Positions 7,641 through 23,524 of a DNA stretch of 64,000 bases are shown here, piece by piece. Source of the stretch: an uncultured Actinomycetes bacterium (lineage in GTDB: Bacteria > Actinomycetota > UBA4738 > CALAEC01); contig CAZKFH010000004.1 in NCBI GenBank assembly GCA_964551945.1, positions 30,435 to 94,434 of the forward strand, given 5' to 3'. Within the stretch, counting starts at the first letter, position 1. Every line of letters starts with the position of its first letter. A program made the translations under genes and the position numbers. The notes below the pieces were generated by a model. That model was not told the origin of the DNA. It made no database searches and was given only the letters and a program-made list of their open reading frames with translations.

Positions 7641-9356
7641 TTGTTGATACGGTTCCGCCGTATGTCCTTCCGAAAATCCCTGCGAGGCCTCGTCGTGCTC
7701 ATGCTGCTGGCTTCGGCTTGCAACGGTGACGATGGTCCCCCGGTCGAGACGCCCACCTCGGCGGCACCCACGACCACGGGCGGCACCACCGCGCCTCCCG
7801 AGGGGTTCGCGGAGGAGGTCGCGTGCGGCCTCCCGCCCCAGTGGCTTGCGCGCATCTGGCGCGGGTACCACCCGGAGCGCAGCGCGGACATCCAGATCCT
7901 GCCGAAGGTCCCGAACTTCATCGGCGCGGCACTGCCTCACGTCGGGCCGTGGGACTTCACCTCGGACGTCCCGATGTTCTGGTACGGCCCCGGCTACATC
8001 AAGCCGATCGGGCCGGTGCAGGAGCCCGTGACGTCGGCCGACATCACCGCGACGTTCGACCATCTGCTCGATTCGTCGTTCGAGCCCGTCGACGGGGAGC
8101 CGATGCTGGACGCGCTCGTCCCCGCCGAGGAGCGTCCGGAACCGCCCCGGCTCATCCTCGAGATGATCTGGGACGGAGCGGGTCGCAACGTGCTGACGCA
8201 GTGGCCCGACGCCTGGCCGAACCTCGCGGAGCTGCGTCCGCAGGGCGCGTGGTACGAGCACGCGACCGTCGGCTCCTCGCCGACCTCGTCCGCGCAGATC
8301 CACGCGACGATCGGGACCGGCGCCTTCCCGCGGAACCACGGCGTCGTCGGGCACAGCATCCGTATCGACGGAGAGATCGTCTCGCCGTGGAAGGACGGAG
8401 CGCGCGAGCTGCTCGTCGAGACGTTCGCCGATCACTTCGACCTCGAGCACGACAACGAGCCGATCGTCGGCGAGTCGGGCACCGTGCCGATCCAGCTGGG
8501 AATGATGAGCCGCGGCGCCCTCGCCGAGGGCGGCGACAAGGACATCGCGGTGCTCCGCACGCCGGGGAACGCCGAGACGCTCGGCGCGGAGGGCGTGGCC
8601 TGGAACCTCCCCGAGGGGTTCGACCAGTGGTACCGGTACGTGCCGTACGCGAACGACCTGCCAGAGCTCCCCACGTACTTCGACGACGTCGAGCTCGACG
8701 CGGGAGACGGCAAGCGCGACGGATTGTGGCACGGGCGAGCGTTCGAACAGTCGGACGAGCTTCTCGACGGGTTCCACACGCCGGCGCGCGTCCCGTATCA
8801 GACGCGGCTGGTCGAGGAGATGATCACGCGCGAGGGGTTCGGTGCGGACGAGACGACCGACCTCTTCTACATCAACTACAAGCTGATCGACGCGCTCGGG
8901 CACCTGTTCGGTATCCAGGACCCGGCGATCGGTGACGCGGTGCGCGCCCAGGACGACTCGCTGTCGCGGCTGATCGCGTTCCTCAACGAGCAGGTCGGCG
9001 AGAACCGCTGGGTGCTCCTGGTCACCGCCGACCACGGGTCGCTGGAGTCCACGCAGACGAGCGGGGCGTTCAATATCTCCGGCGAGGCGGTCAGCTCGGC
9101 GATCCAGGCGCGCTTCGACGAGGACGGGGACGAGGTCCCGGTGATCGAGCAGGTCAAGCAGACGGAGATCTTCATGAATATCTCGGAACTCGAGGAGCAG
9201 GGCCACACGCTGGAGGATGTGTCACGGTTCATCATGGATCTTCGGCAGCAGGATGTGCCGTTCCCCGGCTTCGAGGTGCCGTCACCGAACGAGAAGGTCT
9301 TCCAGGCCGCGTTCCCGGCCGAGGCACTCGAGTCGCTGCCGTGCCTCCAGGCCTAG
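7641..9356 (+). CDS. Type I phosphodiesterase / nucleotide pyrophosphatase-like (alkaline phosphatase superfamily) lipoprotein, paralog 1
   Basis: Signal peptide plus lipobox (LLASAC; alternative ATG start at 7662). Motifs LILEMIWDGAGRNVL (metal-binding Asp), GSSPTSSAQIHATIGTGAFPRNHG (NPP-type Thr nucleophile block, compare PT.T.PNH...TG..P..HGI) and C-terminal TADHGS. Confidence 0.75.
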   Translation: MLIRFRRMSFRKSLRGLVVLMLLASACNGDDGPPVETPTSAAPTTTGGTTAPPEGFAEEVACGLPPQWLARIWRGYHPERSADIQILPKVPNFIGAALPHVGPWDFTSDVPMFWYGPGYIKPIGPVQEPVTSADITATFDHLLDSSFEPVDGEPMLDALVPAEERPEPPRLILEMIWDGAGRNVLTQWPDAWPNLAELRPQGAWYEHATVGSSPTSSAQIHATIGTGAFPRNHGVVGHSIRIDGEIVSPWKDGARELLVETFADHFDLEHDNEPIVGESGTVPIQLGMMSRGALAEGGDKDIAVLRTPGNAETLGAEGVAWNLPEGFDQWYRYVPYANDLPELPTYFDDVELDAGDGKRDGLWHGRAFEQSDELLDGFHTPARVPYQTRLVEEMITREGFGADETTDLFYINYKLIDALGHLFGIQDPAIGDAVRAQDDSLSRLIAFLNEQVGENRWVLLVTADHGSLESTQTSGAFNISGEAVSSAIQARFDEDGDEVPVIEQVKQTEIFMNISELEEQGHTLEDVSRFIMDLRQQDVPFPGFEVPSPNEKVFQAAFPAEALESLPCLQA

Positions 9357-9598
9357 TCCCAGATCCGCTCCAGGTGCCACCGGCCGGAGCGCCGGTCCTG
9401 ATAGATGTCGCAGACCGCGCCGCCCCGCGCCTCCACCCGCCAGTACTCGCGGTCACGGCCGTCCTCCCACCACCGGCCCTCGATCCGCCAGCGGCCGATC
9501 ACGTCCGCGACCTGGTACTGCCGGGAACGCCAGCGGAACGCGGCGGGCATGCCGGCGTCACGCTCGACCTTGACCTCCTCGTCGTACCGGATCCCCAC
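9353..9598 (-). CDS. Small Trp/Arg-rich hypothetical protein, predicted SOS-inducible
   Basis: 3' part of listed ORF 9353..9859; candidate starts GTG 9598 (81 aa) or ATG 9550 (65 aa: MPAAFRWRSRQYQVADVIGRWRIEGRWWEDGRDREYWRVEARGG...). LexA box 10 nt upstream of the GTG. Convergent 4-nt overlap with paralog 1. Confidence 0.45.
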   Translation of the reverse strand: MGIRYDEEVKVERDAGMPAAFRWRSRQYQVADVIGRWRIEGRWWEDGRDREYWRVEARGGAVCDIYQDRRSGRWHLERIWD

Positions 9599-9608
9599 CT
9601 TCGCCCCC

Positions 9609-9624
9609 TCGAACGTATGTTCGA
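9609..9624. promoter_or_regulatory. LexA (SOS) operator TCGAAC-N4-GTTCGA
   Basis: Perfect palindrome TCGAACGTATGTTCGA in the 380-bp gap between two phosphodiesterase paralogs, immediately upstream of the minus-strand small ORF. Confidence 0.65.
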
Positions 9625-9737
9625 CCGGACCTGTGAAGGTACTCCGGAGCCATTTGGGTGTCAAGCCGAGCCTGACGGCCCAACCGCGCCTCGATAGACT
9701 TCCGCGTTCCCATGACCCTTGACCCCACGAGCATTTC

Positions 9738-11387
9738 TTGACCGTTCGAGCGGGCGCGCTCCTCCTGCTGCTGGCGATGGCGGCAGCGTGCACGGAAGAC
9801 GCACCGACGCCGCGGTCGTCACCCTCGCCGACGGCCTCGGCGACCGCGTCCCCCTCCATCGATCCGTCCGAGCCGCCCAGCCGCTACGCGCGCATCGCCT
9901 GCAGCCTGCCGCGCGAGCAGATCCTGCGCGTGTACAACGGCACCAACCCCGATCGCTCCGGCGAGCTGCAGTTCGTTCCCCAGGAGCCGAACTACGTCGG
10001 GAACTTCGCGTCACACTCGGGACCGTGGGATTACCTCCAGGACGTCCCCCTGTTCCTCTACGGGCCCGGCCACGTTCCCGCGACCGGGGAAGTTCCCCGC
10101 AAGGCGACCGTCGCGGATCTCGCTCCGACGTACGCCGAGATGATCGACTTCGAGTTCGACGCTCCCGACGGCCAACCGCTGACGGAGGCGATCGGTCCCG
10201 CAGCGGATCCCCCGAAGCTGATCCTGACGGTCGTCTGGGACGGCGCCGGGATCAACGTGCTGGAGCAGTACCCGCGCGCGTGGCCGGTCGTGAAGGCCCT
10301 GATCCCCAACGGCGCCTGGTACGAGAACGCGACTGTGGGCTCCTCACCCTCGGTGACGCCGGCGATCCACTCGACGATCGGCACCGGCGCGTTCCCCCGC
10401 ACGCACGGGATCGTCGATCTGCGCTTCCGGATCGAGGGCGCCGTGGACCCCTCGGCGTTCCAACGAGCCACGCTGATGGTCGGTCCGAGCCTCGGTGACG
10501 TCTACGACGCCGCGCTCGACAATCAGCCCGTGATCGGGATGGTCGGCGCCGAGGGAACGCTCGGCATGATCGGGCACGGCTCGCTGTGGGAGAACGGTGA
10601 CTTCGACATCGCGGCGGCGTCGCGCGCCGGCGAGTGGGGGCTCGCCGGTAACAACAACGAGTTCTACGAGTTCCCGGCGTACGTCCACGACCTTCCCGGC
10701 TACGACAAGGTACCGGCTGAAGCCGATCGCGACGACGGCACAGTTGACGGCACGTGGTTCGGCGCCGAGCTCGACACGCCGGACAGCTACACATACACCG
10801 AGGCGTACAACCGCTACCAGACCGGAGTGATCGAGGAGGTCATCGAGCGGGAGGAGTTCGGCCGGGACGAGATCACCGACCTCCTGTACGTCAACTACAA
10901 GCAGATCGACAAGGTCGGGCACAAGTTCTCGTTCCCGTCGCAGGCCATGGAGAAGGCGGTGAAGGGAAGCGACAACGCGTTCGAGGCCCTGGTCGAGGTC
11001 CTAGACCGCCAGGTCGGCGAGGGTGAGTGGGTCATGGCGCTCACGGCCGACCACGGCTCCACCCCCTTGCCCGAGACGACCGGGGCGGTCATCATCGATA
11101 ACTTCGAGCTTGCCAGGGACCTCCTTGCCGAGTTCGATGGGGACGACGACGACCGGCCCGTGATCCAGAGCCCGCGCGTGACCCAGACCTGGGTCGACCT
11201 GGAGGAGCTCGAGGAGCACGGCCACACGTTGGAGGACATGGCGGACTACCTGATGGCGTACACGCGGGCCGACAACGCGGTCGACCCCTCGAGCGTTCCG
11301 GCCGACGCTGCAGATGATCGGCTGTTCGCCGCGTCGTTCCCGAGCGCGGAGCTCGACACGCTCCCCTGCCTGGAGCCGGCCTCATGA
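9738..11387 (+). CDS. Type I phosphodiesterase / nucleotide pyrophosphatase-like lipoprotein, paralog 2
   Basis: TTG start; signal peptide with lipobox (LAMAAAC). Motifs LILTVVWDGAGINVL, GSSPSVTPAIHSTIGTGAFPRTHG, LTADHGS. Colinear similarity to paralog 1 over the full length. Confidence 0.75.
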   Translation: MTVRAGALLLLLAMAAACTEDAPTPRSSPSPTASATASPSIDPSEPPSRYARIACSLPREQILRVYNGTNPDRSGELQFVPQEPNYVGNFASHSGPWDYLQDVPLFLYGPGHVPATGEVPRKATVADLAPTYAEMIDFEFDAPDGQPLTEAIGPAADPPKLILTVVWDGAGINVLEQYPRAWPVVKALIPNGAWYENATVGSSPSVTPAIHSTIGTGAFPRTHGIVDLRFRIEGAVDPSAFQRATLMVGPSLGDVYDAALDNQPVIGMVGAEGTLGMIGHGSLWENGDFDIAAASRAGEWGLAGNNNEFYEFPAYVHDLPGYDKVPAEADRDDGTVDGTWFGAELDTPDSYTYTEAYNRYQTGVIEEVIEREEFGRDEITDLLYVNYKQIDKVGHKFSFPSQAMEKAVKGSDNAFEALVEVLDRQVGEGEWVMALTADHGSTPLPETTGAVIIDNFELARDLLAEFDGDDDDRPVIQSPRVTQTWVDLEELEEHGHTLEDMADYLMAYTRADNAVDPSSVPADAADDRLFAASFPSAELDTLPCLEPAS

Positions 11388-14300
11388 CGAAGACCGGCCG
11401 CTCCTGGGCAGCGGTCGCGACCGTCACCGCGATCGTGGCGGTGATGGGGTGGCAGTTCTTCACCGACGCGTCTCGCGCGGTGCCGGCGTTCGACACCGCG
11501 TACTACGAGTGGCGCGTCGAGTACCTCTTGGCCGAGGAGCCCGGCGCGCTGATCGACCTGCGAGGGGCGGACGGCGCGCTCGCCAGCGGGTACCGCGTCG
11601 CTGAGCCGGTGCTGGGAGCGCTCCTGCGAACGGTCGGCGGGGTCGACGACTCCGTTCCGTCGGTCGTGCTCTCGATCCTGTTCCGCGTGCTGTGCGCGCT
11701 GGGGATGGCTGCGTTCGCGTGGCGGCACCGGAGGAACTGGCTCCTCTTCTACCTCACCCTGCTGACGATCCCGGCGCTGTTCCTGCTGCAGCGGTTCTTC
11801 GGCTACATGGACAACTTCATGACGGGGGCTCTGCTCGCGGGAGCGCTCGTGCTGCTCGACCGGATGCGGGAGTCCTGGGGGGCACGGATCGCCGTCACCT
11901 TGTTCTTCTTCCTCTCGGGGCTGAGCCATCCGACAACCCTCGTGATCCTGTTGCTGTCTCTCGGTGCCGTCGCGGTGTACCGGTTCGTACGGGAGCGGTC
12001 GCTCCTCAAGGCCCTGCAGTCGGAGGGCCTCGTCATCGCGACCGGCACGGTCTCGGTGATCATGACCGCGGCGTTCTGGTTGGGAGGCCTGTGGGGTCCG
12101 ACGTCCTCGTTCAGCGACGCGGCCGTCCCACCCCCGGCCGACGTCGACTATTTCGTCAACCGAAGCCTCGGCGTGATGAAGAACCTCCAGCCCTTCGACC
12201 CGGCCACCGCCCCGGACTGGATGGTGCTGCTTGGCGTCGCCGCGCTCGGCGCCCTGATGCTCGCGGGGCTGGTGCACCTTGTTCGGCGCATCGGCAAGGA
12301 CCGCGAGTACTTCGCGGAGATCACAGTCGGCTGGACGCTCCCGCTCCTGGGGATGCTCGGGTTCCTGGTCGGCTTCGCGTACCCGTACTTCCGCTTCTTC
12401 AACGCGACGCTCGCTCCTCTGTCGCTCGCGGCGCTCGGGCTGGCGCTGTTCATCGCGGGCGCACGGAAGATCGGCGGGCAGCGGCTCGCGGTGCTGGCGC
12501 TCGTGGCCGTCGTGGCCCTCCTCGGAGGCTGGTGGTACCGCGGCCTGTCGGCGTGGAACGAGACGGGGACGTGGCTCACGCCCGAGATCCGAACGACCAC
12601 CTCCGCGCTGAACGGCTACCTCGAAGCCGACCCCGACGTTCGGGCACTCATGGTGGTCGACGCCCAGGGCGAGTCGCAGGTCTCCTATGGCGCCTACAAG
12701 GAGTACCTGAACGCGACGTACGCGGGGATCGACGGAGAGAACATCGACCGCGTCACGTTCTTCTTCGGCCGCATCGAGGACCTCGAGGCCGGTCAGGCCA
12801 CGGAACTCCCCGGCAACGACGTCTACAACACGATCGCCACTGAGACCGCGAAGGAGGCACTCGCGGTCCTCGAGGAGGACAACGTCGTCGTGTTCCTGCC
12901 AGCCGAGATGAACACCCCCTCCTCAAACGAGGAATACCTGGGTGAATGCACCGAGGTCATCTTTCGGACCGGGACGTTCTTGAGCGACACCCAACCGTGT
13001 TCAGAGGTCGGGAACAGCGGTCTCTACGCGGTCCCCGGCTTGTCGTCATCTGAGATCGACGAAGCTTCCTTCCGAAGCGCTTTTGAAGCCGGCGCGACGG
13101 CCGCCTCGCAGGCGACCACCTTCGCAACCAATCCACCGGGGCCCTTCGAGAACATCGGTTCGACGCTGCTGGCAACGCTGAGGCTCGCGCTCCTCTTCCT
13201 GCTTCCCGGATGGCTCTTCTACCGGAGGTTCGAGCGGCGCTCGTTCCCCGAGGCACTCGCGCTCGTGCCGTTGTTCTCGATCGCGGCGGTGACCACGATC
13301 GGGGTCTTCGCGATGGCGATCGTCCGCTCGCCGTTCAGCCCGACCATCGGATGGGCATCGTGGGGCATCGCCGTGCTCATCGCGGCATTCTGGAGGCTCC
13401 CCGCAGGCATCCGCCGCCGTCGCGATGCGCTCTTCGCCGGTCCCGCCCGGCTGATCGACTCCACCGCCCTGCTCTTCAAGAAGCGCGACTTCACGGCATT
13501 GATGGGCGCGCAGTGGCTCGCACAGGCCGCGGACGGGCTCGTCGCGGCATCGATCGCGAAGCTCATCACGTTCGGTGGGCAGAGCGGCTTGGACGTCGAG
13601 GCCGCGGGCTCGCCGCGCGACGCGCTGGTGATCGTGCTGCTCACCTTCCTGCCCTACACCCTCTTCAGCCCGTTCCTCGGAGTCGCGATCGACCGCGGCG
13701 ACCGACGGAAGCTGCTGATCTGGGCGAACGCCGTGCGGACCGTGATCCTCGCCGCGATCGTGGTGCTCGGTCTCTCCACGATCGGCGACGCCGCGCTCTA
13801 CGTCTCGCTGCTCCTGGTTCTGGCCGGCACCCGTCTGTTGCTGGCGATCAAGAGCGCCGCGCTCCCGACGATCCTCGGCGGCCGTGACCTCCTGCAGGGC
13901 AACTCGATCTCCCAGGCCGGGAGCGCCCTGTTCCAGCTCTTCGGCGCGGGAGTCGGGCTCGTCGCGTCCGGGCTCCTGAACACGCGCGTGATCCTGATCG
14001 GCGGCGTGCTTCTCTACGCGGGAGCCACCGCTTCCTCGATCGCCGTTCGCAATCTCGCCGGCGACACGGGCAAGGACTCGCTCTCGGGCGAGCTTCGGCG
14101 GGTGTTCGGCAACATGATCGACGGCTTCAAGGAGGTGCGCCGCCGCGCGGCCGCCGGGATCGGCCTGCTCTCTTTCCTTACGGTGCGAAGCATGCTGACG
14201 ATGGTCGTCCTCGCGACCGGCTTCGCGTCCCGCGAGCTGATCGAGGCAGAGGGCCTCACCTCAACCGCGATTCCCGGTCTCGCCGGAGTGCTCGGGGCCG

Positions 14301-14731
14301 GCCTCGGATTCGTCATCGCGCACAACGTTCGTGAGCGCGTCGCGGCGGCTCGGATCGTCAGTGGTGCCCTGATCGTCGGTGCGATCGGCATGCTCGCGTT
14401 CGGCGGGATCGTGTCGATCCTTGGGATCTCGCTGATGGCATTCTCGGTGGGTCTCGCGTTCTTCCTCGGCAAGGTCGGGGTCGACACGATGATGCAGGAG
14501 GCCCTCGACGACCGGTTCCGAGGACGCGGCTTCAGCCTTCAGGACATCGCGTACAACATCTCCTGGCTGCTGCCGGCGTTCGTGCTGTACCTCTTCGTGG
14601 GTGAGAACTTCGACCGTGTACGGATCCTGCTCGTGATCGCGGGCGTCGTGTTCCTGGCGGTGGCGCTGCTGATCGGGTTCGCCGCGCGGCGCCTGCCCGT
14701 TACGGGAAAGGAACCGACGCGGGCGACGTGA
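11384..14731 (+). CDS. Large fusion membrane protein: N-terminal ~650-aa polytopic domain with a big extracytoplasmic loop (GT-C-like glycosyl/lipid transferase architecture, low confidence) fused to a C-terminal 12-TM MFS-type transporter domain
   Basis: 1115 aa; ATGA overlap with paralog 2 stop (translational coupling). N-domain has many hydrophobic helices, a first-loop DTAYYEWRVEY acidic motif and a ~250-aa soluble segment (residues ~400-650). C-domain (from ~FKKRDFTALMGAQWLAQAADGLVAAS...) has MFS-like paired 6+6 TM organisation with basic interhelix loops. Confidence 0.65.
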   Translation: MTKTGRSWAAVATVTAIVAVMGWQFFTDASRAVPAFDTAYYEWRVEYLLAEEPGALIDLRGADGALASGYRVAEPVLGALLRTVGGVDDSVPSVVLSILFRVLCALGMAAFAWRHRRNWLLFYLTLLTIPALFLLQRFFGYMDNFMTGALLAGALVLLDRMRESWGARIAVTLFFFLSGLSHPTTLVILLLSLGAVAVYRFVRERSLLKALQSEGLVIATGTVSVIMTAAFWLGGLWGPTSSFSDAAVPPPADVDYFVNRSLGVMKNLQPFDPATAPDWMVLLGVAALGALMLAGLVHLVRRIGKDREYFAEITVGWTLPLLGMLGFLVGFAYPYFRFFNATLAPLSLAALGLALFIAGARKIGGQRLAVLALVAVVALLGGWWYRGLSAWNETGTWLTPEIRTTTSALNGYLEADPDVRALMVVDAQGESQVSYGAYKEYLNATYAGIDGENIDRVTFFFGRIEDLEAGQATELPGNDVYNTIATETAKEALAVLEEDNVVVFLPAEMNTPSSNEEYLGECTEVIFRTGTFLSDTQPCSEVGNSGLYAVPGLSSSEIDEASFRSAFEAGATAASQATTFATNPPGPFENIGSTLLATLRLALLFLLPGWLFYRRFERRSFPEALALVPLFSIAAVTTIGVFAMAIVRSPFSPTIGWASWGIAVLIAAFWRLPAGIRRRRDALFAGPARLIDSTALLFKKRDFTALMGAQWLAQAADGLVAASIAKLITFGGQSGLDVEAAGSPRDALVIVLLTFLPYTLFSPFLGVAIDRGDRRKLLIWANAVRTVILAAIVVLGLSTIGDAALYVSLLLVLAGTRLLLAIKSAALPTILGGRDLLQGNSISQAGSALFQLFGAGVGLVASGLLNTRVILIGGVLLYAGATASSIAVRNLAGDTGKDSLSGELRRVFGNMIDGFKEVRRRAAAGIGLLSFLTVRSMLTMVVLATGFASRELIEAEGLTSTAIPGLAGVLGAGLGFVIAHNVRERVAAARIVSGALIVGAIGMLAFGGIVSILGISLMAFSVGLAFFLGKVGVDTMMQEALDDRFRGRGFSLQDIAYNISWLLPAFVLYLFVGENFDRVRILLVIAGVVFLAVALLIGFAARRLPVTGKEPTRAT

Positions 14732-16475
14732 GGTCGCCCTCCGGGTACTCGCCCGGACCCGCTGCACCCACTTGCGCGTCTGTCAGCGCGCCCAGGTAGT
14801 CGCCGGGAAACGCGCCGGCGAAGACCAGCCGATCGAGCTCCTCATCGGAGATCTTCGAGCGATCCGCGTCCTTCGGCAGACCGTCGCCGTAGCGGTATTC
14901 GCCCACGAACCGCGCGACGTCCTCGAGCGTGATGCCAGCGACGTCCATGGCCCCCCGATCGAGGAACAGGCCCGACGGGGTCACCTTCTGCACGATCTCG
15001 CGACCGAAGTACGCGTCGACGTCCTGGCCGAGCACGTCGGGGTGGATGCGAAGGCCGCCGGTGGTCTCCGGGAGCGGCGTCTGGCCGTGATCCGCGGTGT
15101 AGGCAAGCACCCACTCCCCCTTGCCGACCTCCCGGTCGAGCGTGTCGACGATCTCTCCGAGCAGCTGATCTTGCGCGCGCAATACCTCCTCCTCCTCGGG
15201 CGCGACCATGTTCCAGAGGTGACCGCCGAAGTCGGTCGGCTTCAGCTCGACGAACAGCAGGTCCGTGACGTCATCGTCGCCGAACGGCTCGCGGCGCATC
15301 ATCTCGAGCAGCGCCTGTCCCTGATGGATGACGAACGCCGGGGTCGCGGGGATGACCTTCGGGTCCTGCAGGTCGTACTCGTTCCACATCCCGTCGAGCT
15401 TGCCGTCCTCGGCGTCCTGCTCGTCGAGCCGCGCGCGCAGATCGTCCTCGCCGGGGAGGTAGTCGGGAACCTCGTACAGCTCCTCGTTCGCGAAGAACTC
15501 GCCGACCCCCTCGTCGGGGTTCCATAGAACCGCGACGTCGCGATCAGCGCCGGTCGGCTGAGCACCGTGACTCATCATCCCCAGGTGCCAGGACTCGTAG
15601 CCGATCATCCCCACCCAGGCCTCGTTGTTCGTGTCGAGATCCCACTGATCGGCCAACGTCGTATCGAGCAGCAGCTGAGGGTCGGCATCGTGCTCGAAGA
15701 AGAGATCGCCGACACTTCCGTCCGGGAGCCGACCGGTGATCTCCGCCATACCGTGACTGCTCGGGTACCGCCCGGTCCCCATGTTCGCGTGGATCGCTGA
15801 GGTGACTGCCGGCGCCGAGCCGATCGTGGCGTTCGTGAACACCGTCCCCTCATCCATCAGCCTGCGTAGCTCGGGCCACGCATCAGGCCAGCGTTCGAGC
15901 AGATTCCAGCCTCCCCCGTCGTACGCGACGAGGACGACGGCTCGCGGCCGCGTGGTGAGCGGCGCGGGCTGAGGCTCGGGAGGGGCAGGTGGGAGTGCCT
16001 CTCGAAGAGGCAGTCCTGCGGGGTCGAAGTAGTGAAGCGGGTGCCCGAACCGGGTCGTCTTCCCCAGCAGCCAGCCGAAGGACGGCGCCAGGTCAGTCAC
16101 ATCAACAGAGCGATCCGAGGGTGGCCCCGGCGTGATGTGCCCAGGCCCGTAGAGGACGATCGGGACGCGCTGGTGATAGCTCCATGGCGTCGGGTGAGTG
16201 GTGCTCGGGTCGGCGTCATCGGTGCCGAGACCTACGCCGCTCCAGCGGACCACCACGTTGTACGGCTCCGGCACGAACGCGATATCGGTCGAGGTCGCCG
16301 GGTAGTACCCCCGCCGCAGGGCCGTGAGGACGTCCCCGCCGACCGCCTCGGCCATCTGGTCGAGTGTGCGGGACTCTTGGGGCGGCCCCGGGACGGGACG
16401 AGGCTCTTCCTCCGTGCAGCCCGCAGCGAGGAGGAGAACCGTCAGGACGAGGGCCGCACGGGGCGCGGGAAGCAT
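14700..16475 (-). CDS. Type I phosphodiesterase / nucleotide pyrophosphatase-like lipoprotein, paralog 3
   Basis: 3' part of listed 811-aa ORF; start ATG 16475 (MLPAPRAALVLTVLLLAAGC lipobox). Motifs VVLVAYDGGGWNLL, GSAPAVTSAIHANMGTGRYPSSHG, YTADHGQ. 32-nt convergent overlap with the fusion gene. Confidence 0.75.
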   Translation of the reverse strand: MLPAPRAALVLTVLLLAAGCTEEEPRPVPGPPQESRTLDQMAEAVGGDVLTALRRGYYPATSTDIAFVPEPYNVVVRWSGVGLGTDDADPSTTHPTPWSYHQRVPIVLYGPGHITPGPPSDRSVDVTDLAPSFGWLLGKTTRFGHPLHYFDPAGLPLREALPPAPPEPQPAPLTTRPRAVVLVAYDGGGWNLLERWPDAWPELRRLMDEGTVFTNATIGSAPAVTSAIHANMGTGRYPSSHGMAEITGRLPDGSVGDLFFEHDADPQLLLDTTLADQWDLDTNNEAWVGMIGYESWHLGMMSHGAQPTGADRDVAVLWNPDEGVGEFFANEELYEVPDYLPGEDDLRARLDEQDAEDGKLDGMWNEYDLQDPKVIPATPAFVIHQGQALLEMMRREPFGDDDVTDLLFVELKPTDFGGHLWNMVAPEEEEVLRAQDQLLGEIVDTLDREVGKGEWVLAYTADHGQTPLPETTGGLRIHPDVLGQDVDAYFGREIVQKVTPSGLFLDRGAMDVAGITLEDVARFVGEYRYGDGLPKDADRSKISDEELDRLVFAGAFPGDYLGALTDAQVGAAGPGEYPEGDLTSPASVPFP

Positions 16476-16526
16476 GGAGCGGGATGATACCCGTCGTTGT
16501 GGAGCCGCTCGCGCGACAATGGCCGC

Positions 16527-17804
16527 ATGCTCTCCCGAAGACGGCTGCTCGTCGCCGTGGGTATCGCTGCCCTGATCACCCTCCCGGCCGGTGTGCTCGC
16601 CGGCCTTTGCGTCGGCAATGCCTGCCGCCGCGAGGAGCGAGCGACGGGACGCGTCCCCTTCTGCTCGCTTCCGCAGGACCTCCGCTCCCTGATCGCGGCC
16701 GGCTTTCGTGACGGACGCTCCCCGCACGTCATGACGGTGACGAGCCGGGAGGCGAATGCCGAGCCGGCCGAGATGCCGGTCGCGTTCGCCGGAACCGGCG
16801 TGACGCCGGGGGCCGAGGTTCCGGCCGGCACGACCCTCGACGCGGTGGCACCGACGCTGGCCGAGATCATCGGGCTCCGCCGGCCCCACCCCGGGGTGCG
16901 CTCGGGCGAACCGGTGAGCGGGGTCGCATCCGGCGAGGCTCCGCGACTCGTCGTGCTCGTCGCGTGGAAGGGAGTGACGAGCCGGCTGCTCGAGAGAAGT
17001 CCTCAGCTGTGGCCCGTTCTCCGGGGGCTGTTCGAGGACGGTGCGGGCACGCTCGAGGCGACGCCGGGCTCCCTTCCGCTCGACCCCGCAGCCCTGCTGG
17101 CAACGGTCGGGACCGGTGGCCTTCCCCGCGATCACGGCATCACGGGCTCGCTGATCCGGAACGATCAGGGTGACGTCGTCGAGCCCTGGTCCGAGGGCGC
17201 GCCGTTCTCGGTGATCGCGACGGTCGCGGACGACCTCGACGAGCTGGGACAGCAGGCGCCGCGGGTCGGCCTGATCGGTACCGAGGAGACGGACCGGGGG
17301 CTAGCCGGAGGGAACTGGTACGTCGAGAACGACACCGACGACGTCGTGATCGAGCCAACCCTCGAGGGGCAGGCCATCGCCGCGGACACTCTATTGAACT
17401 CCGGGTACGGCGCCGACGCGACCACCGACCTGCTCGCGGTCGCGATGGAGGGGCCCATCCCCCGGCTCGACCAAACCTTGGGACGCCTCCTGGTTGCCGC
17501 TGAACGCACGAGCGGAGGATCGCTCGCGGTGGCCGTCTTGGGAGCTCCATCCGTCACGCGCCAAGGAGCGGCGGCGTTGACTCCGGCCGAGCTCGAGACG
17601 GAGCTCCAGAATCGCCTCGAAGCCGACGTGGTCGAGGCTATCGTGGGGAACGGTGTGTTCCTCGACCAGGAAGCGATGACGGTGAGCGGCCTGTCGGACG
17701 ACCGTGTCGTCGTGGCGCTCCGAGGTCTCGAGACCCCGACGGGCGAACGCGTGTTCCTCGACGTCTTTCCCTCCATCGCGGTGACGTTCGCGAGGTATTG
17801 CTGA
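16527..17804 (+). CDS. Degenerate (likely catalytically inactive) paralog of the phosphodiesterase-like family
   Basis: Signal-like N-terminus (MLSRRRLLVAVGIAALITLPAGVLAGLC). Colinear with the paralogs, but the metal-binding Asp is replaced (LVVLVAWKGVTSRLL), the nucleophile block is mutated (GSLPLDPAALLATVGTGGLPRDHG) and the C-terminal ADHG motif is absent. Divergently transcribed from paralog 3 across a 51-bp gap. Confidence 0.6.
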   Translation: MLSRRRLLVAVGIAALITLPAGVLAGLCVGNACRREERATGRVPFCSLPQDLRSLIAAGFRDGRSPHVMTVTSREANAEPAEMPVAFAGTGVTPGAEVPAGTTLDAVAPTLAEIIGLRRPHPGVRSGEPVSGVASGEAPRLVVLVAWKGVTSRLLERSPQLWPVLRGLFEDGAGTLEATPGSLPLDPAALLATVGTGGLPRDHGITGSLIRNDQGDVVEPWSEGAPFSVIATVADDLDELGQQAPRVGLIGTEETDRGLAGGNWYVENDTDDVVIEPTLEGQAIAADTLLNSGYGADATTDLLAVAMEGPIPRLDQTLGRLLVAAERTSGGSLAVAVLGAPSVTRQGAAALTPAELETELQNRLEADVVEAIVGNGVFLDQEAMTVSGLSDDRVVVALRGLETPTGERVFLDVFPSIAVTFARYC

Positions 17805-18814
17805 TGTCGGTCGCGAACGCAACACCGCAGCCGCAGACGGTCGCGAGCCGGAGAACGCTCGTCGCCGTCGGCGCGGGACTGCTCGTCACGGCGGTCGGGC
17901 TTCGCGCCCTCGACGCGCTCGGCGTGGCCTCGCTCAGGAACTTCCTGATCGTCTTCGCGTCGCTCCTCGTGGAGGCGCTCCCGTTCATCGTGCTCGGCGC
18001 GGCGGTCTCGGCGTTGATCGAGGTCTTCGTCCCCGCGAGCGTCTTCGCCAAGCTGGCCCGCCTGCCCCGCGCGCTGCAGCAGCCGGTCGCGGGACTCGGG
18101 GGCTTCGCGTTCCCGGTCTGCGAGTGCGGCTCCGTGCCGGTCGCGCGCCGACTGGTCGCGAAGGGCATGGCACCCGCGGCCGCGATCACGTTCATGCTGG
18201 CCGCGCCCATCCTCAACCCCGTCGTCCTGGCCGCGACCGCCATCGCGTACCGGGGTCGAGACATCCTGTGGCCGATGGTGCTCGGGCGTGCGGGACTCGG
18301 CTTCCTGGTGGCGATCGTCGCGGGTTGGGTGGTCGGGACGGGTCGAGGCCAGGACATCCTTCGAGGTGGGGCATCCCGTGGTGGACTTCACGACCACGGC
18401 GACGTGCCGGAGGCGCGCTGGGCCGAGTACTTCGGCCACCTCGCGAGTGACTTCACGCTCCTTGCCCGTTACCTCGTGATCGGCGCGGCGATCGCAGCCG
18501 CGCTGCAGACGTTCGTTCCCCAGCAGGTGCTTGGCTCTGTCGCCGAGACCCCGATCCTCAATGTCGCGGCGCTCATGGTCCTCGCGTCGCTCCTGTCCCT
18601 ATGCTCCGAGTCGGATGCGTTCGTCGCTGCCTCCTTCGTGCAGTTCGGGCCCTCGGCGCAGCTTGCCTTCCTCGTGGCCGGTCCGATGATCGACGCGAAG
18701 CTGGCCGTGCTCTACGGCGGAACGTTCCGCCGCGGCTTCGTGCTGACGATCACGGCCGCGGTCTTCTCGTTGACGCTCGCCGGTGCCCTGTGGTTCCAGG
18801 TGGCGTTCGGATGA
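17798..18814 (+). CDS. Permease, DUF318/ArsP-like family (CxC motif) - first component of a two-gene permease
   Basis: 338 aa, ~8 TM; conserved ...FAFPVCECGSVPVARRL... motif characteristic of the DUF318 predicted-permease family. Confidence 0.7.
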   Translation: MLMSVANATPQPQTVASRRTLVAVGAGLLVTAVGLRALDALGVASLRNFLIVFASLLVEALPFIVLGAAVSALIEVFVPASVFAKLARLPRALQQPVAGLGGFAFPVCECGSVPVARRLVAKGMAPAAAITFMLAAPILNPVVLAATAIAYRGRDILWPMVLGRAGLGFLVAIVAGWVVGTGRGQDILRGGASRGGLHDHGDVPEARWAEYFGHLASDFTLLARYLVIGAAIAAALQTFVPQQVLGSVAETPILNVAALMVLASLLSLCSESDAFVAASFVQFGPSAQLAFLVAGPMIDAKLAVLYGGTFRRGFVLTITAAVFSLTLAGALWFQVAFG

Positions 18815-19512
18815 GGCGCTGGAGCGGCTCCCGGCTCGCGCAGACCCTGGCGCTCGCGGCGTGGGGCGGCCTCTTTTGGTTCCTGCTCTTCGCCGACCGG
18901 ACCTCCCTCTATCTTTCCTCCCGGACGGCGTGGGTCGTGCCGGTCGGGGCGATCGGCCTCACCATCGCGGCGCTCGGTCGCCTCGCCACGGCACGCACGC
19001 CGAGCCCCGGTCCGCTGGGTCGAGGCACCGTCTGGGCCGTCGGATTCGTGCTGCTTCCCGTCGTCGCGATCCTGGTGCTACCCCCGGCGGCGCTCGGCTC
19101 GTATGCCGCATCCCGCCGCTCGCTTTCCTCTGGACTTGTCGCGAGCGCTCCTGCGCTCGAGGCCGGCGGCACCGTCACACTCGCCGCCGTTGCCGCTGCG
19201 GGCTGGTCGGAGGACGCGAGACGTTCGCTCGTGTCACGCGCGGGCAGCCGTGTGTCCTTCGAGGGCATCGTGACGAAGCGAGCCGGCCAGGCCGCGGACG
19301 AGTTCATGCTCACGAGGTTCATCGTCTCCTGCTGCGTCGCGGACGCGCTCAGCGTGCAGGTGCGCGTGGTCGGAGCGCCCCCTGGAGAGTTCGAGGAAGA
19401 CGACTGGGTGCGGGTCAGCGGCGCCTTCTACCCGGTGGGTCAGGAGGTCGTGGTCGATGCGTCCGAGATCCAGCCGATCCCCCAGCCGGACGATCCGTAC
19501 CTGAACGTCTAG
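18811..19512 (+). CDS. TIGR03943/DUF1980-family membrane protein (partner of DUF318 permeases)
   Basis: 3' part of listed ORF 18601..19512; ATG 18811 overlaps the upstream stop (ATGA). N-terminal 2-3 TM then a soluble domain with a CC pair (FIVSCCVADA); this family is canonically adjacent to DUF318. Confidence 0.6.
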   Translation: MRRWSGSRLAQTLALAAWGGLFWFLLFADRTSLYLSSRTAWVVPVGAIGLTIAALGRLATARTPSPGPLGRGTVWAVGFVLLPVVAILVLPPAALGSYAASRRSLSSGLVASAPALEAGGTVTLAAVAAAGWSEDARRSLVSRAGSRVSFEGIVTKRAGQAADEFMLTRFIVSCCVADALSVQVRVVGAPPGEFEEDDWVRVSGAFYPVGQEVVVDASEIQPIPQPDDPYLNV

Positions 19513-21233
19513 ACGGGCACGTCCGGCGGCGAGGTCAGGTCGGACTCGGGATACATCCCCGGGCCGAGCGCCTCGATCTCCGCGTTGCTGAGCGACTCGA
19601 GGAACGGACCGGGAAGCGCGGCGGCGAAGACGCGCTCGTTCAGCATCGCCGCCGGGATATCGTCGGCGTCGAAGCCAGTTGGGAGCCCCTCCACGTAGCG
19701 GTAGTCCCCGATCCAGCGCGCGATCTCCTCCAGCGTGAGCCCCTCCTCCTCCATCTCCTCAAGGTCCACGTACATGTCGGAGGGCTGGGCTGCCTCCACG
19801 ACACCGAATCGGTCGTCGACATCCTCTGCGAGCTCGTATCGGTCGATGCGCAGGCCGTCGTAGTTCTCCGCGACCGGCGTCTGACCGTGGTCGGCGGTCA
19901 CCGCGAGCACGTACCGTCCCTCCCCGATCCGCCGGTCGAGGGTCTCAACCAGCTCCCCCAGGATCCGGTCCTGCTCCTGCCAGACGGTCTCGAACTGCGT
20001 GCTCTCCATCCCCCAGAAATGGCCCGCGAGATCCCCGGTCTTGAACTCGAAGAACGCCATGTCGGTGATGTCGTCCAGGCCGATCGGCTCCCGTCGAGCC
20101 ATCCGCAGGATGACCTGTCCCGAGTACCACGCGAACGCCGGGTTCGCGGTGAACTGATACGTGTCGGCCTCCAGTGGGCTGTCGCCCCACCGGTCGTCGC
20201 GCGCGCCATCGGAAGCATCTAGCTCCGAGAGCCGAGACTCGAACCTCGATCGCTCGGGGAGGTAGTAAGGGAGCTCGTACGCCTCCGTGTTCGTCCAGAA
20301 CGTGGTCTCCTCCCGGTCCCACATCACGGCCGGATCGGCGTCTCCCCCGCCGGGCGCGCTGGCGCCGCGCCCCATCATCGCGAGGTGCCACGTCTCGTAG
20401 CCCGCGACGCCCACCCAGGCGCGGTTGCCGGTCGAGCGGTCCCACGCGTCGGCCAGGGTCTCGGCGTTCATCAGACGGAAGTCGGCGCGCTCGAAGCTGA
20501 TGTCGCCGATCGTCCCGTCGGGAAGGCGGCTCGCGTTCTCCGCGATCCCGTGGGTGCGGGGGAACGTGCCGGTTCCCAGAGTGGCGTGCACCGGCGCGGT
20601 CACGCTCGGTGCCGACCCGTTGGTGGCGTTCGTGAACGTCGTTCCGTCTGCCATGAGATCGGCCTGGGCGGGCCAGGCGTCGGGCCACTCCTCGAGGACG
20701 TTCCAGCCCCCGCCGTCGAAGACCGCGGTGACGATCGCCCGGGGAGGCTCGGGCCGCTGGGCCTTTGGAACGAGCGCCTCGCGCAGGACGCGACCGGCGG
20801 GAGCATCGAACTCAAAGTCCATCAGCTCCGCGAACGTGGGCGCCAGATCTGCCATGGTCACCGCGCGCTCCGCGACGATGTGCGAACGAATGTATCCGGG
20901 CCCGTAGAGAGTGATCGGCACGCGCTGGTGGTAGGACCAGGGCGTGGCGTGGGTCGTCCGGGGGTCCCGCACCCCGGCGCGCCCGCCCTCCCAGTTGCCC
21001 AGCACGTTCCACGGCTTGGGGATGAGCGCGATATCGCCCGATCGTCCCGGCACGTAGCCGCGCACGATGGACCGCATCACGTCGGTCCCGAGCGCCCGGG
21101 CCATCTGCATGAGCGTCGGTCCGAAACGCGGCTCACCGTCGTCCGAACATCCCGTGCTCACGAGCATGACGGCCGTCACGAGGGCTATCAGAAGGAAGTG
21201 GGCATGCTTCACACGCCGTCGGAGAGGGGTCAC
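19509..21233 (-). CDS. Type I phosphodiesterase / nucleotide pyrophosphatase-like lipoprotein, paralog 4
   Basis: GTG start 21233; signal peptide plus lipobox (LVSTGC). Motifs IVTAVFDGGGWNVL, GSAPSVTAPVHATLGTGTFPRTHG, VTADHGQ. Most similar to paralog 3. 4-nt convergent overlap with the TIGR03943 gene. Confidence 0.75.
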   Translation of the reverse strand: MTPLRRRVKHAHFLLIALVTAVMLVSTGCSDDGEPRFGPTLMQMARALGTDVMRSIVRGYVPGRSGDIALIPKPWNVLGNWEGGRAGVRDPRTTHATPWSYHQRVPITLYGPGYIRSHIVAERAVTMADLAPTFAELMDFEFDAPAGRVLREALVPKAQRPEPPRAIVTAVFDGGGWNVLEEWPDAWPAQADLMADGTTFTNATNGSAPSVTAPVHATLGTGTFPRTHGIAENASRLPDGTIGDISFERADFRLMNAETLADAWDRSTGNRAWVGVAGYETWHLAMMGRGASAPGGGDADPAVMWDREETTFWTNTEAYELPYYLPERSRFESRLSELDASDGARDDRWGDSPLEADTYQFTANPAFAWYSGQVILRMARREPIGLDDITDMAFFEFKTGDLAGHFWGMESTQFETVWQEQDRILGELVETLDRRIGEGRYVLAVTADHGQTPVAENYDGLRIDRYELAEDVDDRFGVVEAAQPSDMYVDLEEMEEEGLTLEEIARWIGDYRYVEGLPTGFDADDIPAAMLNERVFAAALPGPFLESLSNAEIEALGPGMYPESDLTSPPDVPV

Positions 21234-21280: not shown

Positions 21281-22468
21281 ATGCGTGTTCTGATCCTTGG
21301 CGGCGACGGCTATCTCGGCTGGCCGACCGCCATGCACTTCTCGCAGCGGGGCCACGACGTCTGCGTCGTCGACAACTACCTCCGCAGGCGCGCGCACCAG
21401 GAGAACGGCACCGACTCGCTCACGCCGATCCCGGACGACCTCCAGGCCCGCGTGAGCGCATGGCGAGACGTCAGCGGCCGTGAGATCGATCTGGTCGAGG
21501 GCGATCTCTGCGACGCAGGCTTCGTCGACCAGCTCTTCCGAGCGTTCGAGCCCGAAGCGATCGTCCATTACGGCGAGATGCCGTCCGCGCCGTACTCGAT
21601 GGTGTCGCAGAGGCATGCGGTATTCACCCAGTACAACAACGTGATCGGAACCCTCAACGTGCTGTTCGCGATGCGAGACCTGGCTCCTGATTCCCACATG
21701 GTGAAGCTCGGCACGATGGGCGAGTACGGCACGCCGAATATCGATATCGAGGAGGGCTTCCTGGAGGTCGAGCACAAGGGCCGCAAGGACGTGCTTCCGT
21801 TCCCGAAGCAGCCGGGCTCCTTCTATCACGCGTCCAAGGTGCATGACTCCGTCAACATCCACCTGGCCTGCAAGATCTGGGGGCTTCGAGCCACCGACCT
21901 GAACCAGGGCATCGTCTACGGGATCCAGACCGAGGAGACGAAGCTCGATCCGCGCCTGCTCACCCGCTTCGACTACGACGAGATCTTCGGAACCACACTG
22001 AATCGCTTCTGTCTCCAGTCCGTGATCGGTCACCCACTGACGGTGTACGGCACCGGCGGACAGACCCGCGGCTTCCTCAACATCGTCGACACCCTGCGGT
22101 GCGTCGAGCTCGCCGCGTCTAACCCGCCGCCCGGCGGCGAGTACCGGGTGTTCAACCAGTTCACGGAGAGCTTCACGGTGCTGGAACTCGCCGAGCTCGT
22201 CGCGAAGTCGGCCAAGGAGATTGGCGTTACCGCAACGATCGAGCACGTCGAGAACCCTCGCATCGAAGCGGAGGCTCACTACTACCGAGCGACCAACACG
22301 CGTCTCATGGATCTCGGCCTGCAGCCCCACTACTTGTCGGAGACGCTGATCGAATCGATGTTCGACATCATCGGTCGGTACCGCGATCGCGTCGACGAGA
22401 AGCACATCATGCCGCGCACGCGCTGGCGCCCTCGCGAGTCGACGCCCGCCGACGCCTCACACCTCTAA
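21281..22468 (+). CDS. sqdB: UDP-sulfoquinovose synthase
   Basis: Near-colinear identity blocks with plant/cyanobacterial SQD1/SqdB: LILGGDGYLGW, VDN..RR, LTPI, HYGE..SAPYSM, TQYNNVIGTLNVLFA, HMVKLGTMGEYGTPNIDIEEGF, YHASKVHDS, ATDLNQG.VYG, RFDYDEIFGT.LNRFC, GHPLTVYG.GGQTRG, PRIEAE.HYY, HYLS. ATG 21281 with GGAGAG upstream. Confidence 0.85.
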   Translation: MRVLILGGDGYLGWPTAMHFSQRGHDVCVVDNYLRRRAHQENGTDSLTPIPDDLQARVSAWRDVSGREIDLVEGDLCDAGFVDQLFRAFEPEAIVHYGEMPSAPYSMVSQRHAVFTQYNNVIGTLNVLFAMRDLAPDSHMVKLGTMGEYGTPNIDIEEGFLEVEHKGRKDVLPFPKQPGSFYHASKVHDSVNIHLACKIWGLRATDLNQGIVYGIQTEETKLDPRLLTRFDYDEIFGTTLNRFCLQSVIGHPLTVYGTGGQTRGFLNIVDTLRCVELAASNPPPGGEYRVFNQFTESFTVLELAELVAKSAKEIGVTATIEHVENPRIEAEAHYYRATNTRLMDLGLQPHYLSETLIESMFDIIGRYRDRVDEKHIMPRTRWRPRESTPADASHL

Positions 22469-23524
22469 GTGCAGGAACTGGTCGCACTCAGGATCGTCGG
22501 CGGCCTTTTCGCCGCGATCCTCCTCCTCTCCGCAATCTTTCGATATCGCGGGCGGCGGATCACCCGCCTCAACCTGCTGATCTCCTGCACGCTTGCCGTC
22601 GCCGGCCTCTTGCTCGCAGCGTTCCCCGGGTTCTTCGACCCGCTGTTCGACCTGTTCAACTTCCGCCGCGGTGGGGGGCGCCGCCTCCTGGCAGTGCTCG
22701 TCTTTGGCAACATCGTGCTGCTCCTGCTCCTGCTCCGGAACCAGACCGAGACTGACGTGGTGCGCCGCGATTTCCAGCTGTTGATGGAGTGGATGGGCGT
22801 GAATTCCCTCGAGAAGGAGGACCTGGACGGGCTCCCGGCCGGAGGGCGTGTCGTCGTTGTTCTTCCGGCGCACAACGAGGCGTCGAACGTCGGGGCGGTG
22901 CTGAACCAGATGCCGGAGAAGGTTGACGGCCATCCGGTGGTCTCCCTGGTGGTCGACGACGCGTCGGAGGACGAGACCGCCGACGTCGCGAGGAAGGCCG
23001 GAGCCCTCGTCGCCCGCCTGCCGATCCGTCGCGGTGGTGGACAGGCGGTTCGCGTCGGATACGAGCTCGCGCTCAAGCTCGACGCCGAGGTGGTGGCGTC
23101 TCTCGACGCCGATGGGCAGCACGATCCGAGCGAGCTGAAGCTCCTGGTCGAGCCGATCCTCCGTGGCGAGTTCGACATGGTGCAGGGCTCGCGCGTGCTC
23201 GGGCGCTACGAGAAGGAGAGCCACATCCGCCATCTCGGCGTGCTGGTCCTGTCACGACTGGTCTCGCTCATGACCGGGACGCGGGTCACCGACGTCTCCA
23301 ACGGCTACAGGGCGCTTCGCAAGGAGACCCTCCAACGTCTGATCCTGCAGCAGGATCAGTTCTGGACGAGCGAGATCATCATCGAGGCTCTCCGTCAGCG
23401 CGCGAGGATCAAGGAGGTCCCGATCAGCGTCCGCGCTCGCGCGAGCGGCGTGACGAAGAAGCCGAAACCGTTCAAGTACGGCTGGAGCTTCCTCAAGGTG
23501 ATCGTCAAGACCTGGCTCCGCTGA
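22469..23524 (+). CDS. Membrane-anchored family-2 glycosyltransferase (DPM1/Ppm1-like polyprenyl-phosphate sugar synthase type)
   Basis: GTG start immediately after the sqdB stop. N-terminal 2-3 TM helices, then a GT2 catalytic domain (VVVLPAHNEASNVGAVL..., DADGQHDP DxD region, VSNGYRALRK). Architecture resembles polyprenyl-P-mannose/glucose synthases. Confidence 0.7.
   Translation: MQELVALRIVGGLFAAILLLSAIFRYRGRRITRLNLLISCTLAVAGLLLAAFPGFFDPLFDLFNFRRGGGRRLLAVLVFGNIVLLLLLLRNQTETDVVRRDFQLLMEWMGVNSLEKEDLDGLPAGGRVVVVLPAHNEASNVGAVLNQMPEKVDGHPVVSLVVDDASEDETADVARKAGALVARLPIRRGGGQAVRVGYELALKLDAEVVASLDADGQHDPSELKLLVEPILRGEFDMVQGSRVLGRYEKESHIRHLGVLVLSRLVSLMTGTRVTDVSNGYRALRKETLQRLILQQDQFWTSEIIIEALRQRARIKEVPISVRARASGVTKKPKPFKYGWSFLKVIVKTWLR

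Follow-up and report, generated by a model that had tools for sequence, protein, structure and literature searches.

The window analysed here is a 64-kb stretch of DNA (about 68% GC) from an uncultured Actinomycetes bacterium (contig CAZKFH010000004.1), and our subject is one of its genes, here called pseudo-AP, which encodes a 425-residue paralog of the alkaline phosphatase (AP) superfamily that has been stripped of its catalytic residues, together with the permease operon that this gene opens. Pseudo-AP is a real gene. Its reading frame runs from an ATG at 16527 to the final codons TGC-TGA (TGA at 17802-17804), within a stop-to-stop frame of 16488-17804 (+), and its GC content by codon position (0.74/0.53/0.85) matches the pattern of the real genes of the window.

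Four further paralogs, all active-looking lipoproteins, lie in the same window (Table 1). Their PF01663 scores are 78-100 bits, and at the N-terminus each has a lipoprotein-type signal that ends in Cys; beyond these four, no full-length copy was found in the 64 kb. An ArsP_1 permease gene follows pseudo-AP, with overlapping stop and start codons (TGATG), and the stop of the permease gene in turn overlaps the start of a TIGR03943 gene (ATGA), so that the three genes are arranged for translational coupling. The first-pass annotation of this DNA, made from the sequence letters, had given the coordinates and length of pseudo-AP, the four paralogs and the 51-bp head-to-head spacer shared with paralog 3, and all of these match our recheck.

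Table 1. Genes and protein features at the pseudo-AP locus (window coordinates; GC3, GC content at third codon positions; AF2, AlphaFold2)
Feature	Coordinates	Strand	Evidence
Pseudo-AP gene, 425 residues, catalytically stripped AP-superfamily paralog	16527..17804	+	GC3, alignment, AF2, ortholog family
Arg-Arg and transmembrane helix, residues 3-27, probable signal anchor	16533..16607	+	AF2 helix
C28-x4-C33 motif, outer end of helix	16608..16625	+	Family conservation
RPHPGVRSG, residues 119-127, most conserved block of the family	16881..16907	+	Mean column conservation 0.96
Lys148 codon, position of the first metal-ligand Asp (PafA D38)	16968..16970	+	Paralog alignment, PafA mapping
Ex-nucleophile loop and helix, GSLPLDPAA...LPRDHGITG, residues 181-207	17067..17147	+	Alignments, conservation
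ArsP_1 (PF03773) permease gene	17804..18814	+	Pfam, E = 8e-53
TIGR03943/DUF1980 putative permease subunit gene	18811..19512	+	TIGR03943, 108 bits, above cut-off; DUF1980_C
Paralog 1, active-looking lipoprotein, PF01663	7662..9356	+	Pfam, alignment; closest to pseudo-AP by BLASTP
Paralog 2, active-looking lipoprotein, PF01663	9738..11387	+	Pfam, alignment
Paralog 3, active-looking lipoprotein, PF01663, divergent neighbour of pseudo-AP	14700..16475	-	Pfam, alignment
Paralog 4, active-looking lipoprotein, PF01663, convergent with operon end	19509..21233	-	Pfam, alignment
Divergent spacer between paralog 3 and pseudo-AP, 51 bp	16476..16526		Paralog 3 start codon at 16475 (-)

Fold, descent and loss of the active site

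Pseudo-AP is a member of the AP superfamily by fold and by descent. BLASTP relates it to paralog 1 (E = 8e-22) and to paralog 3 (E = 2e-15), which places the homology far above chance. In a Pfam search, PF01663 matches residues 142-222 only, over just the first 80 model positions and at 19.9 bits, below the gathering score of 23 (a threshold that some orthologs do exceed), and no Pfam or NCBIfam family covers the protein above threshold. Profile and sequence searches of the PDB returned the alkaline phosphatase PafA as the sole match. Structure prediction, one of the checks suggested in the first-pass annotation, gave a confident AF2 model from 117 homologs (pLDDT 89.9, pTM 0.85) with a PafA-like fold, for which Foldseek ranks PafA (5tj3) top in the PDB (E = 3e-6, probability 1.0), followed by SPAP (5xwk) and then by NPPs. 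The model thus indicates that the alpha/beta core fold of alkaline phosphatases is kept. The TM-score to PafA is only 0.45, and circular permutation may contribute to this low value.

All five AP-superfamily genes of the window appear to be circularly permuted relative to PafA. The N-terminal ~100 residues of the five proteins align to the C-terminal ~435-533 of PafA, including its last His ligand, and the segment preceding their first core strand derives from the PafA C-terminus. The Pfam Sulfatase match of paralog 4, in which residues 87-139 correspond to model positions 249-300, is consistent with the permutation.

The elements of the active site are gone from this fold. In a five-way MAFFT alignment, the WDG/YDG/FDG of the paralogs becomes WKG in pseudo-AP (Lys148), their SSPTSS/SSPSVT/SAPAVT/SAPSVT becomes SLPLDP with Pro187 at the nucleophile position, their K-x-x-D-x-x-G-H block meets a 17-residue gap, their T-A-D-H-G is reduced to L-G-A and a 5-residue gap, and a paralog insert of ~70 residues is absent. 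Mapping onto PafA by hidden Markov model (HMM) alignment (chain offset 11) places Lys148 at the zinc ligand D38, Pro187 at the nucleophile T79 and Ser208 at the active-site residue N100; D305/H309 and D352/H353 fall in deletions, and the window protein has Asn in place of H486, at a position that varies across the family. D305, H309 and H486 are zinc ligands, as are D352 and H353. The roles of T79, N100, D38, D352 and H353 are those described in the HT-MEK paper (bioRxiv 10.1101/2020.11.24.383182). All seven mapped zinc-site and nucleophile positions are lost in pseudo-AP, and the active paralogs retain every mapped PafA active-site residue. The first-pass annotation had listed the metal-binding Asp (WKG), the Thr/Ser nucleophile block and the terminal ADHG as lost; the paralog and PafA alignments bear this out, and the multiple alignment that it recommended finds all metal and nucleophile ligands missing, with N100 and the last His as two extra losses. 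We infer from these alignments that pseudo-AP is catalytically dead, without any catalytic or metal-binding residue.

A mere shift of the catalytic residues is ruled out: two independent alignments, MAFFT with the paralogs and HMM with PafA, agree in having Lys, Pro or gaps where the ligands should be, and Asp148 is never restored among 82 distant full-length representatives, in which position 187 is Pro in 66 and Thr once.

Conservation of a protein without catalytic residues

A search of 5.8 billion proteins gave 832 matches, the best 120 of which were analysed as close homologs. These best 120 share 47-76% identity with pseudo-AP, mostly have lengths of 420-480 residues (three are shorter) and all come from uncultured Actinomycetota metagenome-assembled genomes (MAGs); their sources label them mostly 'hypothetical', or else with the generic 'alkaline phosphatase family protein'. 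Intact full-length orthologs persist to 39-47% identity and span about 100 clusters at 50% identity, with 210 matches at E <= 1e-30 among 1.84 billion 50%-identity representatives, and 143 GTDB species representatives encode a relative. The substituted positions are themselves conserved: among the 120 close homologs, Lys148 occurs in 102, Asp186 in 119, Pro187 in 113 and His203 in all 120, and in the family alignment 31 columns are invariant and about 100 near-invariant. The pattern indicates that the catalytic losses are ancient and conserved.

The ratio of nonsynonymous to synonymous substitution rates (dN/dS), estimated by the Nei-Gojobori method with dS near saturation except for the closest pair, is 0.27 for pseudo-AP against its closest ortholog (75% identity); the corresponding values are 0.12-0.22 among the active paralogs and 0.05 among the permease genes. 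The five orthologs used in the estimate are all free of stop codons. Pseudo-AP evolves faster than its neighbours yet is clearly constrained, under purifying selection. Retention rather than decay, as first proposed from the intact reading frame, is borne out by the 143 species representatives, the conserved substitutions and the dN/dS value, the last being a check that had been proposed along with it. Pseudo-AP is, in sum, an enzyme homolog that lacks the catalytic residues and is under purifying selection, which agrees with an operational definition of a pseudoenzyme, and it has neither the nucleophile nor the bimetal ligands by which an active PF01663 enzyme is recognised.

What is conserved instead? 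At the N-terminus, nearly all orthologs examined carry the Arg-Arg pair, a hydrophobic stretch and the C-x4-C motif; in the family alignment C33 never varies and C28 is conserved to at least 90%, and each is present in 77 of the 82 distant representatives. C33 occupies the same alignment position as the paralogs' lipobox Cys, and a canonical lipobox is not present around the pseudo-AP C-x4-C. Because a helix is followed by C-x4-C without a canonical lipobox, a signal anchor is more likely than a cleaved lipoprotein signal. The signal-like N-terminus reported earlier therefore stands as a hydrophobic, export-type N-terminus, but not as a lipobox of the kind found in the paralogs.

C28, C33, C46 and C425 are near-invariant in the family, and C46 and C425, the very last residue, also occur in paralogs 1 and 2. 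A C46-C425 disulfide may tie the permuted termini together, and C28-x4-C33, which lies at the membrane surface and is specific to the dead paralog, could bind metal.

Within the domain, RPHPGVRSG is followed in degree of conservation by GSLPLDPAA and then by LPRDHGITG, the latter two belonging to the former nucleophile loop and its helix. At the position of RPHPGVRSG the active paralogs have an unrelated segment, 3 residues shorter. Several basic residues are conserved across the family, and His203 and Asp301 are common to the active paralogs too.

A three-gene operon and its proposed role

With whom might such a protein work? From the head-to-head position, the first-pass annotation suggested a partnership with paralog 3, and it overlooked the linkage that is invariant, which lies downstream, to the permease genes. 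We mapped the window proteins onto 84 related loci (the fractions below refer to loci with enough flanking DNA). The ArsP_1 gene directly follows pseudo-AP in 70 of 71 loci and the TIGR03943 gene comes second in 65 of 66; the single exception is locus L056, in which the permease pair has been lost. The immediate upstream neighbour varies: it is paralog-1-like in 26 loci, paralog-3-like in 21, a second, divergent permease pair in 12 and a same-strand paralog-1-like gene in 2, while 7 have another gene or no cluster-gene homolog detected within 700 bp. Since the trio is near-invariant and the upstream neighbour is not, the stable unit is the three-gene operon rather than a pair with paralog 3, and the suggested partnership is not supported.

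A broader form of that idea deserves consideration, namely that pseudo-AP serves as partner, regulator or decoy of paralog 3 or of the active phosphatases generally, by heterodimer formation or substrate competition and independently of the permease. Besides the 51-bp head-to-head arrangement in the window, the gene next upstream is an active paralog in 49 of 68 loci, and of the 51 loci with at least 9 kb upstream, 48 contain a paralog; the regulation of active paralogs by pseudoenzymes is, moreover, described as common in reviews. Against this, the upstream neighbour is not constant across loci, L027, L070 and L079 show no paralog within 10 kb, and the sole invariant link is to the permease genes, with their overlapping codons. 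A decoy that binds substrate phosphate is itself improbable when both metals and the nucleophile are gone. We regard this explanation as unlikely, although it deserves to be kept in mind.

We propose instead that pseudo-AP is probably a non-catalytic, extracytoplasmic accessory subunit of the putative ArsP_1/TIGR03943 permease. The N-terminal transmembrane helix would hold the AP-fold domain on the outer face of the membrane, where pseudo-AP would act as a third component beside the two-part permease, as a receptor, dock or chaperone. The former active-site loop (GSLPLDPAA, LPRDHGITG) and the new motif RPHPGVRSG would together form its binding surface. The system may handle a metal, most likely zinc, around the neighbouring secreted zinc-dependent phosphatase paralogs, and would move it either toward those paralogs, for their metallation, or into the cell.

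The permease itself keeps a P-V-C-E-C-G (C-x-C) motif. An arsenic role for this ArsP_1 member was set aside, as arsenic genes are not nearby. A second ArsP_1/TIGR03943 pair stands divergent to pseudo-AP in 12 loci (L020, L028, L030, L031, L038, L039, L048, L050, L053, L074, L080 and L082, at about 6-10 kb in each) and runs in the same direction as active phosphatase paralogs and membrane/major facilitator superfamily (MFS) genes. AP-superfamily genes and this type of permease have therefore been linked repeatedly in the lineage.

The suggested metal role of the operon comes from the gene neighbourhood in a subset of the related loci and from a sparse literature. In L056, pseudo-AP is followed by a convergent operon encoding a Fur-family regulator, an ABC-3 permease and an ABC ATPase, and in about 17 other loci the same operon lies, convergent, immediately after the TIGR03943 gene. 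It is also found about 1.2 kb upstream of pseudo-AP in L032 and nearby in L027 and L079. About 17-20 of the related loci have it. Examples are L045 13066-15274 (-), L056 3810-5949 and L032 6849-8811, and the same stretch occurs in L035, L040, L049, L052, L055, L058, L066, L068, L072, L078, L081, L083, L036, L043 and L017. Pfam confirms FUR, ABC-3 and ABC_tran on the operon proteins, and the best NCBIfam matches of the transporter are AztB/AztA and ZnuB/ZnuC, all below cut-off. The palindrome TGAGAATGATTCTCA occurs once per locus upstream of these Znu/Azt-like operons, e.g. at L055 6059 and L045 15168. Among studied members of the permease family, Zur boxes have been described for the Bacillus anthracis ArsP_1 permease BAS1632, which binds Zur in an electrophoretic mobility shift assay (PMC6336718), and Shewanella SO_0444 (PF03773) is required for growth under Zn or Cu stress (PMC3219624).

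Two fusion proteins touch on the same theme. P0213 (L128 1506-3491) and P0227 (L129 5213-7144) join a Ferric_reduct (PF01794) membrane domain to a pseudo-AP domain; both follow ApbE and lie near YHS, CsoR-like (Trns_repr_metal), cytochrome b and cupredoxin genes, and the permease pair is not present at either locus. The protein search found the fusion in just these two contigs, and a metagenome scan with P0213 gave ordinary ferric-reductase genes only. They offer a weak hint toward a metal or redox function.

Several observations weigh against our proposal. The regulator/ABC operon is absent from the window itself, and its adjacency elsewhere is confined to one clade of arrangements, which may partly reflect shared ancestry. 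The Fur-family regulator is not assignable to zinc as opposed to iron or manganese, and all NCBIfam matches fall below cut-off. The Zur-like palindrome TGAGAATGATTCTCA is absent upstream of pseudo-AP, including the 51-bp spacer, and direct Zur control of the trio is for that reason not supported; k-mer enrichment upstream of pseudo-AP yielded only apparent promoter- or Shine-Dalgarno-type strings. Against the model of the SO_0444 Cu/Zn efflux family the window permease scores weakly (58.6 bits, cut-off 300), and no substrate is known for permeases of the ScfAB type (PMC5584981), to which the downstream pair belongs. The dN/dS of pseudo-AP is the highest in the cluster. Finally, all organisms that bear the gene are uncultured MAGs. 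Taking both sides together, we lean modestly toward a non-catalytic AP-fold component of the permease, probably engaged in metal trafficking, as the best overall explanation. Within the permease-subunit reading, zinc is a tentative choice of cargo, one that we would put at somewhat under an even chance.

Could the protein have acquired a new activity? Asp186, His203, Lys148 and Arg119/His121/Arg125 might form a metal-independent catalytic or anion site, making pseudo-AP a neo-functionalised enzyme or ligand receptor that processes or captures an organic phosphate or sulfate compound for import by the permease. It is the former active-site loop and RPHPGVRSG that are the most conserved blocks, Asp186 (in 119 of 120 homologs) adjoins the old nucleophile position, several basic residues are conserved, and some pseudoenzymes are described as having migrated catalytic residues (PMC10211241). 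His203 and Asp301, however, are shared with the active paralogs and so are ancestral structural residues rather than new ones, and the metal-homeostasis genes of the neighbourhood fit a metal role better. Moreover, no AP-superfamily member is known to work without the bimetal site. We consider such a new site improbable, to much the same degree as the partner or decoy role above.

A more specific version of the permease-subunit proposal would make pseudo-AP a metallation chaperone: the permease would export cytoplasmic zinc, to be handed to newly secreted phosphatase lipoproteins, and pseudo-AP would dock the apo-enzymes by mimicking them. This is a long shot, slightly less probable again than either of the two preceding alternatives.

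By far the least probable is a decaying pseudogene, or a reading frame retained solely as a spacer through which the permease genes are translationally coupled, for which the top-ranking dN/dS (0.27) and the large deletions relative to the paralogs might speak; we reject decay on the constrained dN/dS, the intact full-length orthologs found across more than 140 species (the five aligned are free of stops) and the 31 invariant and about 100 near-invariant columns, to which the confident AF2 model and a GC3 typical of expressed genes can be added.

The remaining genes around the phosphatases bear on the setting of the cluster. Between paralogs 1 and 2, on the opposite strand, is a small DUF6504 gene (9353-9859, -) that is conserved in L001 and L003. 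At 11384-14731, a 1115-residue membrane protein ends in an MFS transporter (C-terminal ~400 residues) and has no Pfam match over its N-terminal ~670 residues, for which an ortholog gives a weak DUF6541 match; it is conserved beside the paralogs and is split into two separate genes in some loci. A UDP-sulfoquinovose-synthase-like gene (21281-22468; 483 bits, below the cut-off of 575) precedes a gene resembling family 2 glycosyltransferases (GT2) that use polyprenyl phosphate, with an N-terminal membrane domain (22469-23524), and both are syntenic with the phosphatase cluster in many loci. Given these two neighbours, the cluster may function in the chemistry of envelope glycoconjugates or sulfolipids rather than simply scavenge phosphate.

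Comparison with known systems

PafA (Elizabethkingia, 5TJ3), SPAP (Sphingomonas, 5XWK) and the NPP/PF01663 enzymes share the fold of pseudo-AP, and sequence homology is still recognisable at the first strand, at the helix of the nucleophile and in the C-terminal module. Like many PafA/NPP members, pseudo-AP is predicted to be extracytoplasmic. Unlike PafA, it has no catalytic element left, is anchored by a transmembrane helix and falls below the Pfam cut-off, and both it and the active paralogs carry the C-terminal module of PafA at their N-terminus. The case is a caution against the automatic annotation of such genes as 'alkaline phosphatase family protein'.

PbgA/YejM is a membrane-anchored AP-superfamily protein that acts in lipopolysaccharide regulation, in a role that is mainly non-hydrolytic and regulatory. 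It resembles pseudo-AP in combining a transmembrane anchor with an extracytoplasmic AP-fold domain that is apparently non-enzymatic. YejM differs in belonging to the sulfatase/LtaS branch, in having five transmembrane helices and in keeping a partial metal site, and the two are related only at the superfamily level.

The two downstream genes of the window belong to the same families, and show the same paired linkage, as the ArsP_1 and TIGR03943 pairs ScfA/ScfB of group A Streptococcus, SMU.746/747 of S. mutans and YcgR/YcgQ of B. subtilis (PMC5584981). Pairs of this kind occur widely among Gram-positive bacteria, and infection by group A Streptococcus requires ScfAB, for which no substrate is known (PMC5584981). 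The described pairs are bicistronic and an AP-like third gene goes unmentioned, whereas here a third gene precedes and overlaps the pair. BAS1632 and SO_0444 are of the same permease family as the window gene, and metal-homeostasis genes are neighbours in a subset of the related loci; unlike BAS1632, the window operon has no Zur-like box upstream, and the match to the SO_0444 model is weak. Our literature searches found no description of an AP-superfamily member without the whole bimetal site that is conserved as the operon partner of a transporter. Bacterial pseudoenzymes are seldom characterised, and a putative third component drawn from zinc-enzyme stock, encoded among zinc enzymes and, in some related loci, near putative zinc-uptake genes, provides a testable cargo hypothesis for a permease of the ScfAB type.

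In eukaryotes, the zinc transporters ZnT5, ZnT6 and ZnT7 metallate the secreted alkaline phosphatase TNAP. There, too, a transporter is linked to zinc-dependent phosphatases that fold outside the cytoplasm. The likeness is a functional analogy only, drawn from gene neighbourhood, as the ZnT protein families are unrelated to the window genes. If the metallation-chaperone version of our proposal were true, the operon would give the orphan ScfAB/YcgRQ permeases their first substrate and mechanism, which would be relevant to streptococcal virulence, and it would constitute a prokaryotic counterpart of the way in which alkaline phosphatase is activated by ZnT transporters in the secretory pathway of eukaryotes.

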